DNA from: a virus
Lineage: Duplodnaviria > Caudoviricetes
Direction: 5' to 3' (one strand)
IMG/VR virus record: IMGVR_UViG_3300012347_000380
Coordinates: 1-38,778 of that record
DNA: 38,778 nt
Each line of letters opens with the position of its first letter. Position 1 is the first letter of the stretch. A program made the translations under genes and the position numbers. Positions 4,995 to 31,861 of the stretch are shown piece by piece. The notes beneath the pieces were generated by a model, which did no database searches, was not told the DNA's origin, and was given only the letters and a program-made list of their open reading frames with translations.

Positions 4995-6304
4995 TTTTCC
5001 AGCCTCCAATCTTCCGGCCCGGGCTATTGCAATCGCCGCTCGCAGTTGGGCGTATCGCGGCTGACTTAGCATTTAATCCGTTGAGCTTGGTTCCGTTTGC
5101 TTGGTATGACTCAAGCAAAGCCACGTCTCTTTATGATGCGACAACAGGCGGGAGCGTCGTGGCTGCAAACGGAACAGTTCGTCGATGGGAGGACCTATCA
5201 GGGAATTCACGGCACCTCACGCAAGCTGGTAACGCTCCGACACTGACGGAAACCAGCGGGCTGCGTGGCGTTCTTTTCGATGGTGCGGATGACGCCATCG
5301 GTCGCGCTGCAACGGCCTCCGCTTTGCCCGTTACAGTTTATTGCTGTTGGTCGCCGGTAAGTCACACGATCAACGATTCAGTTTGGGACCTTAGAACCAG
5401 CGGAGCGGGGCCTATTTTCCGGCAAGCCGGATCGGCACAAATGGCGGTTAATGGGTCGACGTTATGCGGTCGAGTTCCCCTTTCAATCCCATCGCACGGA
5501 ACACACAAAACCACCGGGACCACGATTGCAGCAAAGATCAATCGTGGCGCGTTCATTTCAGTCACCCAAGCCAACTCTAACGGTTCCGTTATTTGGATGG
5601 CGTCAAGCGGCGGAAGCGCAAGTTTCGGGAATGTCCGCATCCACGAAATGATTTTAGTGTCTGGATCAACGCCGTCCGACACCACTGATGCCGCCGTTGC
5701 CGCATATTTTGAGCGGAAATGGGGCATGACCCGCCCGCGCCTCATGGTCGATGGGAACTCTCTAAGCTCCGGCGGGACTTCGCTTCCCGTGGCCGACGTA
5801 TGGCCAACAATTCTTGCTCCGGAAATCGCCGATTGGGACGTAGTGAATTGGGCAGTCCAAGGCCAAAACATTACCTCCATGGCATCGGATGCGGCGATGG
5901 AATTTGGACGCCAACCAATCCCAACCCGTGCAAAAAATGTCCTCGTTGCGTGGGAGGGCCCAAACCAAATCTCGTCGGGAGCTTCAGCCAATGGAACAGC
6001 CGCCGCAGCCGCGATGAAGTCTTACTGCCAAGCTCGCCAGGCAGAGGGTTACTATGTCATTTGCGCGACCATGCTACCCGCGAACGTAGTCAGCGAGGCA
6101 AATTACAACGCCTTTAATACGGCATTGCGAGACACCCCTGCGAGCTATTGCAACGCGCTGGTCGACCTAGCCGCCAACGCAACAATTGGCGTATGGGGCT
6201 CGCAAACAAATTTGACCTACTACAACGCGGATGCCCTTCATCTAACTGCTGCCGGGCAACTAATTGTGAAGGACCTTTTCAAGGCCGCTGTTCTTGCCTC
6301 CTGA
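4991..6304 (+). CDS. LamG/lectin-like N-domain plus SGNH/GDSL hydrolase domain protein
   Basis: WYDSS...VRRWEDLSGNSRHLTQ and VLFDGADD N-domain; SGNH blocks DGNSLS, AVQGQ, WEGPN and DALHLT. Visibly more A/T-rich codon usage than its neighbours. Confidence 0.75.
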   Translation: MIFQPPIFRPGLLQSPLAVGRIAADLAFNPLSLVPFAWYDSSKATSLYDATTGGSVVAANGTVRRWEDLSGNSRHLTQAGNAPTLTETSGLRGVLFDGADDAIGRAATASALPVTVYCCWSPVSHTINDSVWDLRTSGAGPIFRQAGSAQMAVNGSTLCGRVPLSIPSHGTHKTTGTTIAAKINRGAFISVTQANSNGSVIWMASSGGSASFGNVRIHEMILVSGSTPSDTTDAAVAAYFERKWGMTRPRLMVDGNSLSSGGTSLPVADVWPTILAPEIADWDVVNWAVQGQNITSMASDAAMEFGRQPIPTRAKNVLVAWEGPNQISSGASANGTAAAAAMKSYCQARQAEGYYVICATMLPANVVSEANYNAFNTALRDTPASYCNALVDLAANATIGVWGSQTNLTYYNADALHLTAAGQLIVKDLFKAAVLAS

Positions 6305-6352
6305 CAGAACCACGCTCGACCATAGCAGGACACCGCGCCTAACGTCCCACCA
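6303..6352 (+). promoter_or_regulatory. late-promoter motif copy 2 (capsid operon)
   Basis: GACAGAACCACGCTCGACC-N18-TAACGTCCC, with ATG 7 nt after TAACGT. Confidence 0.8.
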
Positions 6353-11318: not shown

Positions 11319-11394
11319 CGTGCGGTCGCCAAGTGGTTAAGGCGCTGGTCTCATAAGCCGGTTACCGATGGTTCGAATCCATCCCGCGCAACCA
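11319..11394 (+). tRNA. tRNA-Met(CAT), initiator-like (C1:A72)
   Basis: Acceptor CGTGCGG/CCGCGCA, D arm GCC-AAGTGGTTAA-GGC, anticodon loop CTCATAA, T arm GATGG-TTCGAAT-CCATC, and ACCA end. Confidence 0.92.
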
Positions 11395-11794: not shown

Positions 11795-12150
11795 CCCCCG
11801 GGCTCCTTGACCGGGCGAGTCGTCACCTGAAGAGCCTAGGGTGACGGCCACCACTTTCCCGAGACCACCGGGCATACCGCAGAGGACCAATCGCAAGCCC
11901 ACCGTGCGACCTAAGCGGCCACCGACATGGTGGGTAATTGCAAATCGCGAGCGCCCGCGATAAAAACGGAGGAGGACGCAAACCAAACATCCCCGCTGGC
12001 GAGCCTGCACCGTAACCAGCCGCAAGCCGAAACGGTTAGCAACCGGACGGGGGGACCACTTTCCGCGCTTGGTAGCAATCGGAAGCAGCATACCGTCGAT
12101 GGTGTGGCGGTTGGCCGGGACGGGACTCCGCCAGCCGTGAAACCGCTCTA
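11795..12150 (+). ncRNA. cluster of structured non-coding elements
   Basis: Successive hairpins (GTCGTCACC/GGTGACGGC, GCCCACCGTG/CATGGTGGGT, TCCCC/GGGGA multibranch, CGGTTGGC/GCCAGCCG), two ending in CCA-CTTTCC; no convincing ORF. Confidence 0.5.
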
Positions 12151-12213
12151 ACTACTCAAGACCTTGACTGCAAAACTTATGGCCAATCGCCACCACCTAC
12201 TTGTTGTGCCTCT

Positions 12214-12384
12214 TCATTTTGGAGTGGCAGCCGCGAGCGCACGGATCGCCAAAGCGGCCTCTTCCGTGATGAGCTTGCCGCTCTCCCGGTTGTGGATCGT
12301 CATTCGGGAAACCCCGAGCAGGGCTGCTACCTGCGTCGGGGTGCCGATGGATTCGCGGAGTCGTTTGTATTCGCTGGCGGTCAT
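12214..12384 (-). CDS. small XRE/Cro-type HTH protein
   Basis: MTASEYKRLRESIGTPTQVAALLGVSRMTIHNRESG; start at the internal ATG 12384. Confidence 0.8.
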   Translation of the reverse strand: MTASEYKRLRESIGTPTQVAALLGVSRMTIHNRESGKLITEEAALAIRALAAATPK

Positions 12385-12385
12385 A

Positions 12386-12697
12386 TCAGATGTCGGCGAT
12401 GGCCAGCTGGATGATCTCGGAAGGAGAGAGCTTGGAGGCAGCGAAAATGCCGCGAAGCTCTTCGCGCTTGGCCTTGGCGGACTCAATATACTCTGGCTCC
12501 TCATCAAGCAGTGTTCCGAGTTCGATCTCTTCTTCCAATCCGCGATCCGCGGTGACCACCCAGCCGAAAGGAAAGCCACTGACAAAAACGCGAACGCTCT
12601 CGCCAATCATCTGGAGGTAAACGCCGGTTTGCGGGATGTCGCCGTATGGCTTGAAAACTGGATTGCCGTTGTCGAAGGTAGGATTTGGAGTGCTCAT
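12386..12697 (-). CDS. hypothetical acidic protein co-transcribed with the HTH gene
   Basis: 103 aa, preceded by a CAAACCAACCAAGACA leader and a sigma70-like promoter. Confidence 0.7.
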   Translation of the reverse strand: MSTPNPTFDNGNPVFKPYGDIPQTGVYLQMIGESVRVFVSGFPFGWVVTADRGLEEEIELGTLLDEEPEYIESAKAKREELRGIFAASKLSPSEIIQLAIADI

Positions 12698-12743
12698 TGT
12701 CTTGGTTGGTTTGGGGTTGGTCGCTCTCAGTGGCGACGGGGAG

Positions 12744-12798
12744 AACGTAAAATCTTTTTACGCTCACGGCAAGAACTTTCTGTAAAATCTTTTTACGC
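12744..12798 (-). promoter_or_regulatory. promoter with two operator-like repeats
   Basis: Minus-strand TTGCCG-N17-TACGTT; identical quasi-palindromes GTAAAATCTTTTTACGC at 12747-12763 and 12782-12798. Confidence 0.75.
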
Positions 12799-12809
12799 GC
12801 CGTTTATTC

Positions 12810-12932
12810 GGCACAACGTCCAAGGTGACGGATCGCCCGGCACTAACACTCAACCGACACGATAATGCCACTGCCACCAACAACCGCTGACAGCCCGCAG
12901 ATGGGCGATTCCGTCCACCGTCTTGTTCAGCC
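12810..12932 (-). mobile_element. complete integron attC-like site
   Basis: Minus strand: GCTGAAC-AAGAC(5)-GGTG(G)ACGGA(A)TCGCCC...GGGCGA-TCCGT-CACC-TTGGAC(6)-GTTGTGC, showing AAC/GTT cores, 5/6-nt unpaired spacers and two extrahelical bases on the R''-side arm. Confidence 0.7.
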
Positions 12933-13200
12933 TCTTTTGACGGGCAAGCAAGTTGCGGTGATGGAGTTCCTGAAGAAATTCCATGAGGCCGAAGATCGGC
13001 TGCCATCAAGCTACGAGCTGCAAGAATTCCTTGGAAGCTCTTCGCAAAATGCCGCCATGAACTATTTCAGGGCGCTCTGCCAGAAGGGGTATCTCGAACA
13101 TCGAACCAACCAATACAACGCCCGAGGATGGTATAGATTCTCTCGGCAGAACGATAAAATAAGCCAACCATGGACCTGCAACAACTTAAAGAAGAATTAG
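12865..13200 (+). CDS. LexA-like DNA-binding (winged HTH) domain protein lacking a peptidase domain
   Basis: LTGKQVAVMEFLKKFH...PSSYELQEFLG-SSQNAAMNYFRALCQKGYLE matches the LexA N-domain pattern; the start codon lies in the attC-like loop. Confidence 0.75.
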   Translation: MPLPPTTADSPQMGDSVHRLVQPLLTGKQVAVMEFLKKFHEAEDRLPSSYELQEFLGSSSQNAAMNYFRALCQKGYLEHRTNQYNARGWYRFSRQNDKISQPWTCNNLKKN

Positions 13201-13697
13201 ATCGCGCCATCGAGTACGCGCTCGAATGCGGGCAAATCCCGCACCAGATCCCTGTCACGCTCCAAATCGACCGGGATGGAGATGATCCAATCTGGTCATC
13301 CTCCGAAGTGGAACTCCACTACGACAACAACGCTCAAGCCACGGGCTGCGTGCTGAATGCTTATTGGCAGGATATCACCAATAATCTTGCACAAACGGAA
13401 ACGCCCGAACAAAAAATCGCGGCTCGCGATGAGCAAATCCGCCATCTTATTTGTCATCGGGAACGACTGAAAAACGACATCGACCGACTGGAGGCACGAC
13501 TCCAGAAAATCGGGGATGCCATGGAAAAAGTCATCGTCACCGAAGGCGAAGACGCTGGCGTGGTGCTGCTATCCAATGACGCCCCAACGACGTGGAATGA
13601 AGGACTCGGGGTTGCGGTCTATGATCTCCAATACTTCTCCCCGCTCGGGGCGGCGCTCATGGCGCTGTATCAAATCTCTCGGCTGAACACCAAATAA
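13170..13697 (+). CDS. hypothetical protein (cassette-like, possibly two fused modules)
   Basis: 175 aa with a central coiled coil; bounded by GGCAGAAC (13145) and GGCTGAAC (13681) core-like sites. Confidence 0.65.
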   Translation: MDLQQLKEELDRAIEYALECGQIPHQIPVTLQIDRDGDDPIWSSSEVELHYDNNAQATGCVLNAYWQDITNNLAQTETPEQKIAARDEQIRHLICHRERLKNDIDRLEARLQKIGDAMEKVIVTEGEDAGVVLLSNDAPTTWNEGLGVAVYDLQYFSPLGAALMALYQISRLNTK

Positions 13698-13699
13698 CG

Positions 13700-13759
13700 A
13701 CAAGGCCCCGGGCGGCAGCGAAGGACAGGGATGGTCCTTCCGGCCCGGGGCCGCTTTGT
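13700..13759 (+). terminator. long GC hairpin closing the island
   Basis: GGCCCCGGGC/GCCCGGGGCC outer stem and GAAGGAC/GTCCTTC inner stem, followed by GCTTTGT. Confidence 0.5.
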
Positions 13760-13769
13760 GTCCGCCCCT

Positions 13770-13819
13770 GACAGAACCACGCTCGACCCATTCGACGCCG
13801 AAACCCTAACGTCCCGACG
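13770..13819 (+). promoter_or_regulatory. late-promoter motif copy 3 (baseplate operon)
   Basis: GACAGAACCACGCTCGACC-N18-TAACGTCCC, with ATG 7 nt after TAACGT. Confidence 0.8.
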
Positions 13820-17833: not shown

Positions 17834-18057
17834 TGGACCCCGCAACATCCTCCCAACTTGTGGTGCCCGTTTCGTGGGTGCTTGGTGTTTTCGGTCTGCT
17901 CGGAGGGGTGATCGCCACGCTGGCGGGCATCATTTACCGCAGTCTCACCGACCGCCTGTCCGTGCAGGACAAGATCATCGACAAGCTCCAAGACGACGTG
18001 GACCGGCTCTCAAAGGGATGCGGTCACGATGCCTGTCACTGGCGCTTAGGACGCTGA
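17833..18057 (+). CDS. single-TM plus coiled-coil protein (lysis-associated, holin/antiholin-like)
   Basis: WVLGVFGLLGGVIATLAGIIY TM segment followed by a coiled coil; TAATG coupling to the upstream gene. Confidence 0.55.
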   Translation: MDPATSSQLVVPVSWVLGVFGLLGGVIATLAGIIYRSLTDRLSVQDKIIDKLQDDVDRLSKGCGHDACHWRLGR

Positions 18058-18103
18058 CAAAACCACGCTCGACCCCATAGACCCCGAACCATAACGTCCC
18101 ACC
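18056..18103 (+). promoter_or_regulatory. late-promoter motif copy 4 (sheath operon)
   Basis: GACAAAACCACGCTCGACC-N17-TAACGTCCC, with ATG 6 nt after TAACGT. Confidence 0.8.
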
Positions 18104-19543
18104 ATGTCCGAGACATTCCTCCACGGCGTTCAGCTCCTCGAAGTCGATTCCGGCGCTCGCCCGATCCGCACCGTCCGCTCCTCTGTCATCGGACTTGTGG
18201 GATCGGGAAACAGTGATTCCGTTCGCGCCTCGAAAGAGATTGGATCCGGCAACGGCAAACTGAAATTTACCGCCGTCACTGACTCTGCCGCAGACGGGAC
18301 CGCTGGCAACCAGTATCAGGTCCGCGCCATCAACCCCGGCACGAACAACGCCTCGCTCGCTATCAGCATTTCCGGCAAGGTGATCACCATCTCCCTTGCC
18401 ACCGACGGAAGCGCAGTCGCTACCAGCACCGCGCTCCAGGTCATCACCGCGTGGAACTTGGCATCGAGCGTCAACGGCATCGTTGCAATCGCGCTCGGGA
18501 CAGACTCGACCGGGTCCGCTCTCTATGCCGCGCACGCCGCGACAAGCCTAACCGGAGGCGTCAACGCATCTTTCCCACTCAACGTGCCGGTCCTTGTCAC
18601 CAGCCCCACCGGCATCGACGCAAAGGTCGGTGCCAGCACCTACCTCGGCAAGGCTCTCGAAGCGATCTACAAGCAGGCCGGGGCCGTCGTGGTCGTGGTC
18701 CGGTCCAACGACCTCGAAACTCCCGACGCTACCGAGCTGACTGGCGTCTACGCGCTCAAGAAAGCGCAAGCCTCGCTCGGCTACGTCCCGCGCATCCTTG
18801 TGGTCGAGGATGGAAACTTCACCGTCTCCGACGTGAAGGCCGTCGCATCCGCTCTCAAGGCCACCGCGTTCATCGGTCTGAGCACCCTCCACTATCCGAC
18901 CGCCACCGACGCCACCGCGTTTGTCACCAGCGACGGCAACGAACGCACGATGATGCTGTGGCCGTCTGTCAACGGCTTACAGGACCCCGCTCCGTTCATT
19001 GCCGGCGTCACCGCCAAGTCCGACAACGACCGGGGATTCTGGTGGAGCCCATCCAATCAAGAGGTCTTCGGCATCACGTCGCTCGACGCGCCGGTTGACT
19101 TCCAGCTCGGCGACTCGACCAGCCTCGCCAACGTCCTCAACGAGGGCAAGGTCACCACCTTCATCCGCCAAGGCGGGTTCCGCGTGTGGGGCAACCTCAC
19201 CGGCTCCATCGACGCCAAGTGGCAGTTCCTCAGCGTTCGCCGAACCGCTGACATCATCAACGATTCGATCCTGTTCAATCACCTCTGGGCCGTGGACCGC
19301 AACATCACGCGGACCTACCTCGAAGACGTCTCCGACGGCGTGAACGCGTATCTCGCGACACTCACGAACCTCGGCGCGATCATCGGTGGCCGGTGCTGGC
19401 CTGATCCAGACCTTAACTCGCCCGACCAGATCGCGCTCGGGAAGGTGTATTTCAACTTCGAGTTCACGCCTCCTTACCCGGCGCAAACCGTCACCTTCCG
19501 TTCGATCCTCACGAACGACTATCTCTCCGAACTCATCGACTAA
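18104..19543 (+). CDS. contractile tail sheath (P2 FI-like)
   Basis: FLHGV, SVIGLVG, GFWWSPSN, GFRVWGN and FLSVRRT motifs. Confidence 0.95.
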   Translation: MSETFLHGVQLLEVDSGARPIRTVRSSVIGLVGSGNSDSVRASKEIGSGNGKLKFTAVTDSAADGTAGNQYQVRAINPGTNNASLAISISGKVITISLATDGSAVATSTALQVITAWNLASSVNGIVAIALGTDSTGSALYAAHAATSLTGGVNASFPLNVPVLVTSPTGIDAKVGASTYLGKALEAIYKQAGAVVVVVRSNDLETPDATELTGVYALKKAQASLGYVPRILVVEDGNFTVSDVKAVASALKATAFIGLSTLHYPTATDATAFVTSDGNERTMMLWPSVNGLQDPAPFIAGVTAKSDNDRGFWWSPSNQEVFGITSLDAPVDFQLGDSTSLANVLNEGKVTTFIRQGGFRVWGNLTGSIDAKWQFLSVRRTADIINDSILFNHLWAVDRNITRTYLEDVSDGVNAYLATLTNLGAIIGGRCWPDPDLNSPDQIALGKVYFNFEFTPPYPAQTVTFRSILTNDYLSELID

Positions 19544-30597: not shown

Positions 30598-30848
30598 TGC
30601 GGACTTTGTGCGGACTCAAACAAAAGCCCCCGGATCGCTCCGGGGGCCTAAGTCATTGAAAACATTGGTTGCGGGGGCCAGATTTGAACTGACGACCTTC
30701 AGGTTATGAGCCTGACGGCAGCACCTCGCGACGGATTGCGGAAAATTGAGAATCTGTTAGATAACAAACACATGGAAAACACCAACCACCACCAGACATC
30801 GACGCCGGATGCGGACATTTGCGGCGAATTGCGGACAATGAGCGGACT
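30598..30848. repeat. integrase arm-type site repeats around attP
   Basis: TGCGGAC at 30598, 30609, 30810 and 30830, plus variants near 30738, 30820 and 30841, in 10-11 bp phase on both sides of the core. Confidence 0.75.
30666..30716 (-). mobile_element. attP core: 3' half of tRNA-Met(CAT)
   Basis: Minus strand GTCAGGCTCATAACCTGAAGGTCGTCAGTTCAAATCTGGCCCCCGCAACCA contains the anticodon arm, T arm and 3' acceptor only. Confidence 0.88.
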
Positions 30849-31827
30849 GCGCCTATTCGAAGCCGCTGGAAGCCTCGACCGCTATGGCGTCCCAAGAGAA
30901 GAGGTAGTTGAAGCAGTTGAGGCGTTGGCCGACTACGTCGATAACGAGGCGCATGGGAGAGACACGTCGGAGCCGATCAAGCGTCTGTTAGCGTCGGTCA
31001 ATTCGTTGCAGCCCGCCCCAACCACGCCCCCACCGCTGCGAGGACGACCCGGCAGCATCGACCTGCTGCGGAAGGTCACGGGTGATCCGATGGCCGCTCC
31101 TGTGGACGTGGATGAATGCCAGCCCGCCCCGGCCCCGAGCGACCGACCGCTCTATGTCTGCCGCCACTGTGGCCGTGAGTGGGACGACGGAAACAGGCAT
31201 TACTGCGGGTGTGGCGGGCCATACAGAATCCCAAACCCGGCCCCGAGCGCAATTGTGGCGCAATCCATCCGCGACCATCACGGCAAGCTAGAAGCGGAAG
31301 CACGCGCAAAAACCGATTCCGCGTTGGCTGACGAAATCGTCGCGGACGTCACCGAAACCATCGCCCGCTCTGCCGGTGATTGGATCGCTGAGAAGACGGA
31401 CGCTGAGATGATGGCGCTGACCCTAAGCGGACAGAAGACCGTCACCGGAGGCCATGCCCATCCGACCATTCCGATTCCACCACCACCACCTCGGACCGCC
31501 CCAACCCCCGCCAATGAATCCGCTAATGAGCGGTTGCTCCAGCCGCGTCTTGTTCAGCCTCTTTTGAACGTGCGGCAACACCTTGTTGATCGAGCGACTA
31601 ACATCGGAGCGGGAACGTGCCTGCAAAAGAATGAAATACTGTGGGCAATCGAGGTGGTGGACAACGAACTGAAATGGCAAGGACATCCTGAATGCCACTT
31701 CGCAGCCGATAACATCACAGAGCGGACCCGCACCGCCCGCGTGGAAACCTACCGGAAGCTCGTGGCGGATGGCTTCACTCACCACGCTTCGCTGGCCGCC
31801 GCACGCCAACTGATGCATGTCGGCTGA
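30772..31827 (+). CDS. hypothetical mosaic protein between attP and integrase (start uncertain: 30772 or 30838)
   Basis: Modules separated by Pro-rich linkers, a CRHC..CGC zinc finger, and a final module that starts at an attC-like half site. Confidence 0.55.
   Translation: MENTNHHQTSTPDADICGELRTMSGLRLFEAAGSLDRYGVPREEVVEAVEALADYVDNEAHGRDTSEPIKRLLASVNSLQPAPTTPPPLRGRPGSIDLLRKVTGDPMAAPVDVDECQPAPAPSDRPLYVCRHCGREWDDGNRHYCGCGGPYRIPNPAPSAIVAQSIRDHHGKLEAEARAKTDSALADEIVADVTETIARSAGDWIAEKTDAEMMALTLSGQKTVTGGHAHPTIPIPPPPPRTAPTPANESANERLLQPRLVQPLLNVRQHLVDRATNIGAGTCLQKNEILWAIEVVDNELKWQGHPECHFAADNITERTRTARVETYRKLVADGFTHHASLAAARQLMHVG
31528..31559 (-). mobile_element. attC-like half site
   Basis: Minus strand GCTGAAC-AAGAC-GCGGCTGGAGCAACC; shares 22 identical nt (31546-31567) with 12919-12940. 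Confidence 0.55.
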
Positions 31828-31861
31828 ACAGCTAATTATGCCCACCCGGGAGTGTCGATAA

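Follow-up and report, generated by a model that had tools for sequence, protein, structure and literature searches.

We found that a temperate, contractile-tailed phage carries two attC cassettes placed at one point of its genome, most probably by a borrowed integron integrase (IntI), with the larger cassette lying backwards and its attC site predicted to give its genes a leader and a start codon; judged from sequence, we put the probability of this reading at roughly 0.85. The anatomy of the site, a 1,594-bp insertion, an identical larger cassette (cassette A) in three contexts and the loss of an inner attC were all observed in the records compared. Together, the empty site, the filled site, the second phage and the unfused forms document, to the exact base, how a phage in nature gained genes in integron fashion. 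They point to a route of phage mosaicism independent of sequence similarity, which bears on how cassettes arise and grow and on where phages obtain small accessory genes.

The phage locus, its attC sites and the empty target

The window, by which we mean the whole stretch of DNA analysed, is a whole virus record of 38,778 bases, ~90% complete. When compared with a prophage in a Verrucomicrobiae genome (G002), 7 of the 12 tested proteins matched, with structural proteins at 46-67% identity (terminase 61%, capsid 52%), and this similarity of the structural proteins points to Verrucomicrobiota as the host. There was no match among 50,697 annotated phages, and no RNA dataset among the listed holders of the stretch. 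The locus is flanked by an endolysin/tRNA region and a baseplate wedge gene and lies in a lower-GC stretch, the GC content of the cassettes being 0.535 and 0.557 vs 0.616 for the phage. We also observe a repeated motif 5' of structural gene blocks (2534-2560, 6300-6321, 13764-13815, 18054-18104), likely a late promoter or activator site, with similar sequence 5' of the baseplate gene in relatives.

The features of the locus are as follows, where L120 is a related phage, G001 an unrelated one and X1 a sequencing run.

12087-12210, minus strand: attC site 2; relaxed grammar score 14.7, fixed by the empty site
12094-12816, minus strand: cassette B, 723 bp, normal orientation, own attC; absent from L120
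12179-12865, plus strand: open antisense frame across cassette B; core AAC read as Asn, stops in TAATG on the LexA-like start
12214-12384, minus strand: 56-aa HTH (XRE-like) gene; HTH_3 21.3 bits (cut-off 23), stop just before the R'' of attC 2
12386-12697, minus strand: 103-aa gene of cassette B, no assigned function
12747-12798, no strand: a 17-nt near-palindrome in two identical copies, upstream of the genes of cassette B; probable operators
12810-12932, minus strand (top strand of the site): attC site 1, by grammar and covariance model; crossover G at 12817
12817-13687, no strand: cassette A, 871 bp, fused two-gene unit with genes antisense to attC; identical in G001 and X1
12865-13200, plus strand: LexA-type DNA-binding-domain gene; starts, by prediction, within the loop of attC 1 and continues through R''
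13145-13169, minus strand: eroded attC remnant with core, 6-nt spacer and L'-like box
13170-13697, plus strand: 175-aa gene, no assigned family; stop codon in phage flank
13366-13373, minus strand: earlier cassette boundary, now cryptic, within the 175-aa gene; mutated core; single record
13681-13688, minus strand: insertion junction, where cassette A begins next to the target G of the phage (13688)
13706-13753, plus strand: terminator-like hairpin in native phage DNA just 3' of the insertion; present in L120

Reading the minus strand from 12932 to 12810, attC 1 consists of R'' GGCTGAAC, a 5-nt spacer, L'' GGTGGAC and a 10-nt stem arm, followed by a 64-nt loop (12839-12902), a 9-nt stem arm, L' GTCACC, a 6-nt spacer and R' GTTGTGCC. 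The R'' and R' boxes with their AAC/GTT triplets pair (8/8 pairs in the circular form), the L boxes are paired over 6 bp, the central spacers of 5 and 6 nt are unpaired, and the R''/L'' arm has two unpaired (extrahelical) bases, at 12916 and at 12909/12910. The first extrahelical base of an attC site is usually G on the bottom strand; in attC 1 it is C, as in the bacterial sites of its family.

The AAC..GTT attC grammar has attC 1 as its sole match in the window (score 15.2), and of the shuffled windows 0/20 reach a score of 15 and 1/20 reaches 13. A home-made covariance model, not that of IntegronFinder, scores attC 1 at 36.9 bits (E 4.7e-9, a rough value), exclusively on the minus strand, with 14.9 bits for the next best match. 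This model was built from 10 neighbouring bacterial chromosomal sites at 6 loci, all with 6-nt right spacers; the 10 sites did not themselves match the two-arm search pattern, and the model is not fully independent because its loci were reached via a pattern derived from attC 1. The two-arm pattern identified 23 bacterial loci, 10/23 labelled Verrucomicrobiota, and among the bacterial genomes carrying the site family, 12 of the 22 tested have an IntI over the cut-off. The preliminary description had proposed attC geometry for the minus strand here, with AAC/GTT cores, 5- and 6-nt spacers, two extrahelical bases on the R'' arm and a 64-nt loop; every one of these elements is present, and anatomy, grammar and the match to an attC model all agree with it. 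It did not include the second attC (12087-12210) with its 723-bp, normally oriented cassette.

The folding energy of attC 1 is unremarkable (z -1.2 on the minus strand, -0.5 on the plus strand), Rfam yields no attC-like match in the window, and a share of just ~0.04-0.1 is predicted for the recombinogenic fold. The predicted fold is more stable on the top strand (-20.6 kcal/mol) than on the bottom (-17.4 kcal/mol). Higher stability of the bottom strand is typical for attC sites, not a strict rule. In the part of PMC5027507 available, which also describes the extrahelical base G16, attC sites of mobile integrons have the bottom strand more stable than the top, the opposite of attC 1. An attC site in another phage (L157:1160-1283) is 84% like attC 1 and has the same stop-start overlap in its loop, with another R'' and other genes.

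On its own, attC 2 is not significant, as 5/10 shuffles reach a score of 13 and the model gives only a 6.7-bit partial match. Its R'' (12203-12210) pairs 8/8 with the core at 12810-12817, and its R' is supplied by the phage target sequence, hence the GGT core. From attC 2 an empty target was predicted, which was then found in L120, a single record recovered with a flank pattern and 74% identical over 2.4 kb. There, window positions 12055-12094 are joined to 13688-13770 with one base in common. The 1,594-bp insertion (cassettes B and A) lies at G/GT; the L120 target is unrelated to attI or attC (no model match), and there is no duplication. No close empty allele was seen among the matches listed for 80 baseplate-gene relatives. 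For genome insertions by IntI1-3 in E. coli, a GWT consensus is given in the available part of bioRxiv 10.1101/2022.09.11.507474; the GGT target departs from it, and the right-hand hotspot motif is matched at 3/4.

Two further candidates, 13681 as the head of an eroded attC and the hairpin at 13706-13753 as another, were rejected because both lie in native DNA of L120. Of two tRNA-like matches in the window, at 11319-11391 (56.5 bits) and 30669-30730 (35.3 bits), the first is also matched in L120.

Movement and build-up of cassette A

Cassette A is present in G001, a Mu-like phage that was found with an 18-base pattern; of the matches of the first search pattern, 3/4 had no attC context. Set against the whole window, G001 has just two stretches in common, 12814-13694 and a site fragment of 22 bp; within the first, 12817-13687 is identical at 871/871 positions and has different neighbours on both sides. 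At the left end the identity stops one base beyond the core, and at the right end it stops at the core and an intact attC follows. G001 carries 6 co-oriented attC sites, and R'' pairs 8/8 with the preceding R' in 5/5 steps, a chain that is the trace left by cassette insertion. Additionally, a contig of run X1 contains exactly 12817-13688 with 0 differences and unlike sequence on both sides, and these limits place the crossover between G and TT. The left flank in X1 may also be a G/GT target, a one-base slip beside GTT reading the same. The comparison of sequencing runs covered 4 of 21 listed runs, and all contexts found for cassette A are viral or metagenomic.

The R'' of attC 1 (12925-12932) pairs 8/8 with the core at the start of cassette A itself (13681-13688), so that excision as a circle would yield a complete R box; the circular junction has a predicted fold of -23.3 kcal/mol vs -17.4 integrated. 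The unit moving today is the fused two-gene cassette 12817-13687. Mechanistically, the bottom (plus) strand would fold and be cut by IntI in the R' core, between AA and C, and cassettes would excise as circles restoring the 8-bp R box. First entry would have been at the off-target G/GT site, with cassette A arriving either together with B or later at the new G/TT junction.

Like the LexA repressor, the product of the first gene has the N-terminal winged-helix DNA-binding domain (PF01726, 28.9 bits; cut-off 23.7). Unlike LexA, it has no C-terminal peptidase domain and falls far below the cut-off of the full-length model (TIGR00498, 24.8 bits vs 110.95). In a further record (L117) the LexA-like gene forms a single cassette, where similarity stops at 13154 and is followed by an attC (21 bits) whose R'' matches the near core, at 13145; the remnant at 13145-13169 thus appears to be the former boundary of a LexA-only cassette. 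Inside R'', 3/3 protein homologs have Leu and the window protein has Gln, a change that makes R'' match the far core instead of the near one, as would be expected if the fused unit had kept moving.

The 175-aa gene is likely itself a fusion of two cassette genes. Homologs of its protein cover 33-66% in 15/16 cases, and the 7 that were read cover the C-terminal part. A contig of another run (X4) matches 12991-13370 and continues with AAC and an attC-like arm from 13371, a stop overlapping the ATG of the second gene. Because of this exit at 13371 and the partial coverage by the homologs, cassette A is likely a fusion of three. Its build-up proceeded through loss of inner attC. Neither the 175-aa nor the 103-aa protein has a family over the cut-off in profile searches.

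The preliminary description had placed GGCAGAAC at 13145 and GGCTGAAC at 13681, at the ends of the two genes, and had taken both for boundaries with eroded sites. The positions are correct, but they lie near rather than at the ORF ends (13200 and 13697), and the reading holds for 13145, an eroded boundary by comparison with L117, and fails for 13681, which the empty site of L120 identifies as the insertion junction. Natural breakpoints at GTT cores, which it had proposed to look for in related phages, exist in G001, X1, L117 and L120. With the model match, they support its proposal that the phage may gain or shuffle genes via attC, and it is likely that phages swap accessory genes with a borrowed integron recombinase.

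Antisense genes and proposed translation through attC

In a canonical cassette the gene lies on the top strand, upstream of its attC. Cassette B follows this arrangement, whereas the genes of cassette A lie on the bottom strand, with an ATG at 12865 in the loop of attC 1 and a second in-frame ATG at 12901. The preliminary description had recognised the antisense layout with its loop ATG, and it proves typical of this site family in phages. A second pattern, drawn from phage sites and used to gather them, returned 59 viral loci, of which 58 were searched with the model, giving 105 matches. After a duplicate record, cut-off matches and lone sites were dropped and G001 was added, adjacent site pairs with intact cores and at least 7 chain pairs were kept, resulting in 50 cassettes from 22 loci. 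The bacterial loci were judged non-phage by eye, among the matches listed.

We observed that an antisense ORF starting from an ATG inside attC covers at least 90% of the phage cassette in 33/50 cases, and a sense ORF in 3/50. Among bacterial cassettes such an antisense ORF occurs in 1/12, and the longest ORF is sense in 10/12. The longest upstream open run reads the core AAC as Asn at 92/95 phage sites vs 10/29 bacterial ones. This Asn frame stops inside the site in 63 of the 64 phage cases with an internal ATG, and its stop overlaps the ATG in 27/64 (2 and 7 of 64 for the other frames). Because antisense genes start in attC in 33/50 cassettes and one entry frame accounts for 92/95 sites, the attC site likely doubles as a translation coupler. 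Since the cassette genes lie on the bottom strand, they would probably be read from the phage's own plus-strand transcript. An upstream frame would enter the site (AAC = Asn), stop inside it and hand the ribosome to the loop ATG, and with such a handover at each site any cassette order would stay translatable. With attC serving translation of the opposite strand in this way, phage promoters would be able to express the cassettes in any order.

In the window, the frame at 12179-12865 is possibly such a coupling leader. Random synonymous controls leave the cassette B frame open in 1065/2000 cases, about half, so that it is not significant against these controls as a sign of selection; full shuffles keep a frame open in 4/2000 and shuffles of the non-coding part in 765/3000. 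The G001 counterpart is open in 1011/2000 synonymous controls and 345/3000 non-coding shuffles. The leader 5' of 12865 is like those of genes native to the phage, which are A/C-rich, and two LexA-like homologs start at the position aligned to 12865. We infer from this a start of the LexA-like gene at 12865 with coupling, a TTG at 12934 being a weaker alternative.

The G001 counterpart is a normally oriented cassette (G001:C1 15055-15724; L006 3276-3965) that follows cassette A, as in the window. Both cassettes contain palindromes resembling operators and a small gene plus an HTH gene, are unrelated in sequence, and keep an antisense frame open over their whole length. The two HTH proteins gave no alignment that could bear on a possible toxin-antitoxin role of cassette B, and no promoter passed a sigma-70 scan.

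More broadly, we lean towards the view that Verrucomicrobiota phages run a mirror-image integron system. Here, shared backwards cassettes with a fixed entry frame, whose attC would be recombination site, stop, leader and start codon at once, would pass from one phage to an unrelated one through host IntI or phage IntI-like enzymes with their own attI family, and new genes would arise by fusion.

The probable recombinase, rival explanations and known systems

Passive uptake of the block, with illegitimate recombination taking it out of an integron in the host chromosome and its backwards genes being accidental, would fit the abundance of the site family in Verrucomicrobiota chromosomes and the lower GC content of the cassettes, and the available part of PMC9892861 suggests such routes for phage arrays. 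We consider this very unlikely and largely refuted by the empty site, since the insertion ends exactly at crossover points with one common base; furthermore, host arrays are sense in 10/12 whereas phage arrays are antisense, and the contexts in which cassette A was found are viral or metagenomic. An exchange free of IntI, through homologous recombination of similar attC repeats, would be helped by attC sites that are up to 84% alike between phages (L157) and by the 22-bp R'' stretch repeated at 31546. It has little to recommend it, however, as the target has no similarity to attC, the G001 and X1 flanks share nothing with the window beyond the core, and the R''/R' chain is the mark of site-specific excision.

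Consistent with the preliminary description, there is no IntI in the window (best 25 bits vs a cut-off of 265); none was found in G001, a record that is 46% complete. The G002 prophage has an IntI of 345.8 bits beside two model-scored attC sites with antisense genes. Two other viral records have IntI (482 bits in the one scanned) and weaker antisense sites, and in 5/39 viral records there are IntI-like proteins scoring 193-260 bits, below the cut-off; one and the same protein accounts for three of the 5, and each of these records belongs to the 33 that bear arrays. The best reading is an IntI acting in trans that would come from the host or a prophage. The earlier suggestion of a host enzyme is borne out insofar as host genomes with IntI exist, although a co-resident prophage could also be the source.

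An attI-like site lies at 31827-31861, just before the phage integrase, and 25-30 of its 35 bases match a motif in 6 viral records. This motif heads an attC array in 5/6 records, its core pairing 8/8 with the nearest R'', and stands directly before an IntI-like gene in 3/6. The window phage may have lost its own intI at 31827-31861. Behind the site, 31552-31829 is a remnant cassette whose R'' pairs 8/8 with the core, the other attC arm being gone. Its gene is fused in frame into the ORF 30706-31827, and a 22-base stretch here (at 31546) matches the R'' end of attC 1 without a difference.

A role for the tyrosine integrase of the phage (31862-32998) in moving the cassettes might be supposed from its place directly behind the attI-like site and the cassette remnant, but it is of the arm-binding phage integrase type, scores 31 bits vs the IntI cut-off of 265 and is without the insertion common to IntI-like proteins, which makes this scarcely plausible. 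All records are metagenome assemblies, the fold z-scores are weak and none of the 4 compared runs spans the whole stretch, yet a chance hairpin with the shared 871 bp as an assembly chimera can practically be dismissed, since an artefact of this kind would not stop at both cores each of three times and would explain neither the empty site of a separate record nor the R''/R' chain.

Phages are known to carry attC arrays without an integrase (CALINs), five sites of which recombine with IntI1 (Qi et al. 2023, PMC9892861, available part). Like a CALIN, the window has two nearby co-oriented attC sites with small genes between and no intI nearby. Unlike the phage CALINs in the available part of that paper, cassette A has its genes antisense to attC, with a predicted start inside the site, and is seen to have moved between phages; this part mentions neither genes antisense to attC nor a natural empty site. 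In its phage TJE1 the two located sites run with the genes, and one P12002L site may be antisense. Compared with a complete integron, intI is missing beside the array and the array head is native phage DNA rather than attI, the attI-like site lying elsewhere (31827-31861). As in attG insertion (Loot et al., bioRxiv 10.1101/2022.09.11.507474, available part), non-att DNA is the target, the crossover follows G and there is no duplication; in contrast to attG, the target is G/GT, not G/WT, the insertion is in a phage and a natural empty allele is seen.

In class 1 integrons, according to the available part of PMC8876359, loss of an inner attC fuses cassettes, and coupling occurs via ORF-11 of attI or a shortened attC. 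That coupling is on the top strand and an intact attC hinders translation there, whereas the intact site here would supply stop, leader and start on the bottom strand. Phage attC arrays, off-site insertion, fused cassettes and top-strand coupling are already published in the available parts of these sources. A literature search, with most subscription papers outside its reach, found no paper on backwards phage cassettes, and the available parts of PMC12614218 and PMC11551772 added nothing on cassette orientation.

The sites resemble those of Verrucomicrobiota sedentary chromosomal integrons in their R''-spacer-L'' pattern and in the unpaired base at L'' position 4. Unlike the phage arrays, the Verrucomicrobiota chromosomal arrays have sense genes, mostly ending before R'', and no fixed bottom-strand frame. 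In the genome of G002, the related prophage (G002:C4, ~1267700-1307200; L114-L116) encodes a complete IntI together with antisense cassettes in the early operon. Divergent phage-borne IntI-like proteins lie beside arrays of this attC family in L180-L184, and in a Luteolibacter prophage-like region an IntI N-terminal fragment heads an antisense array (L110:1405-1800).
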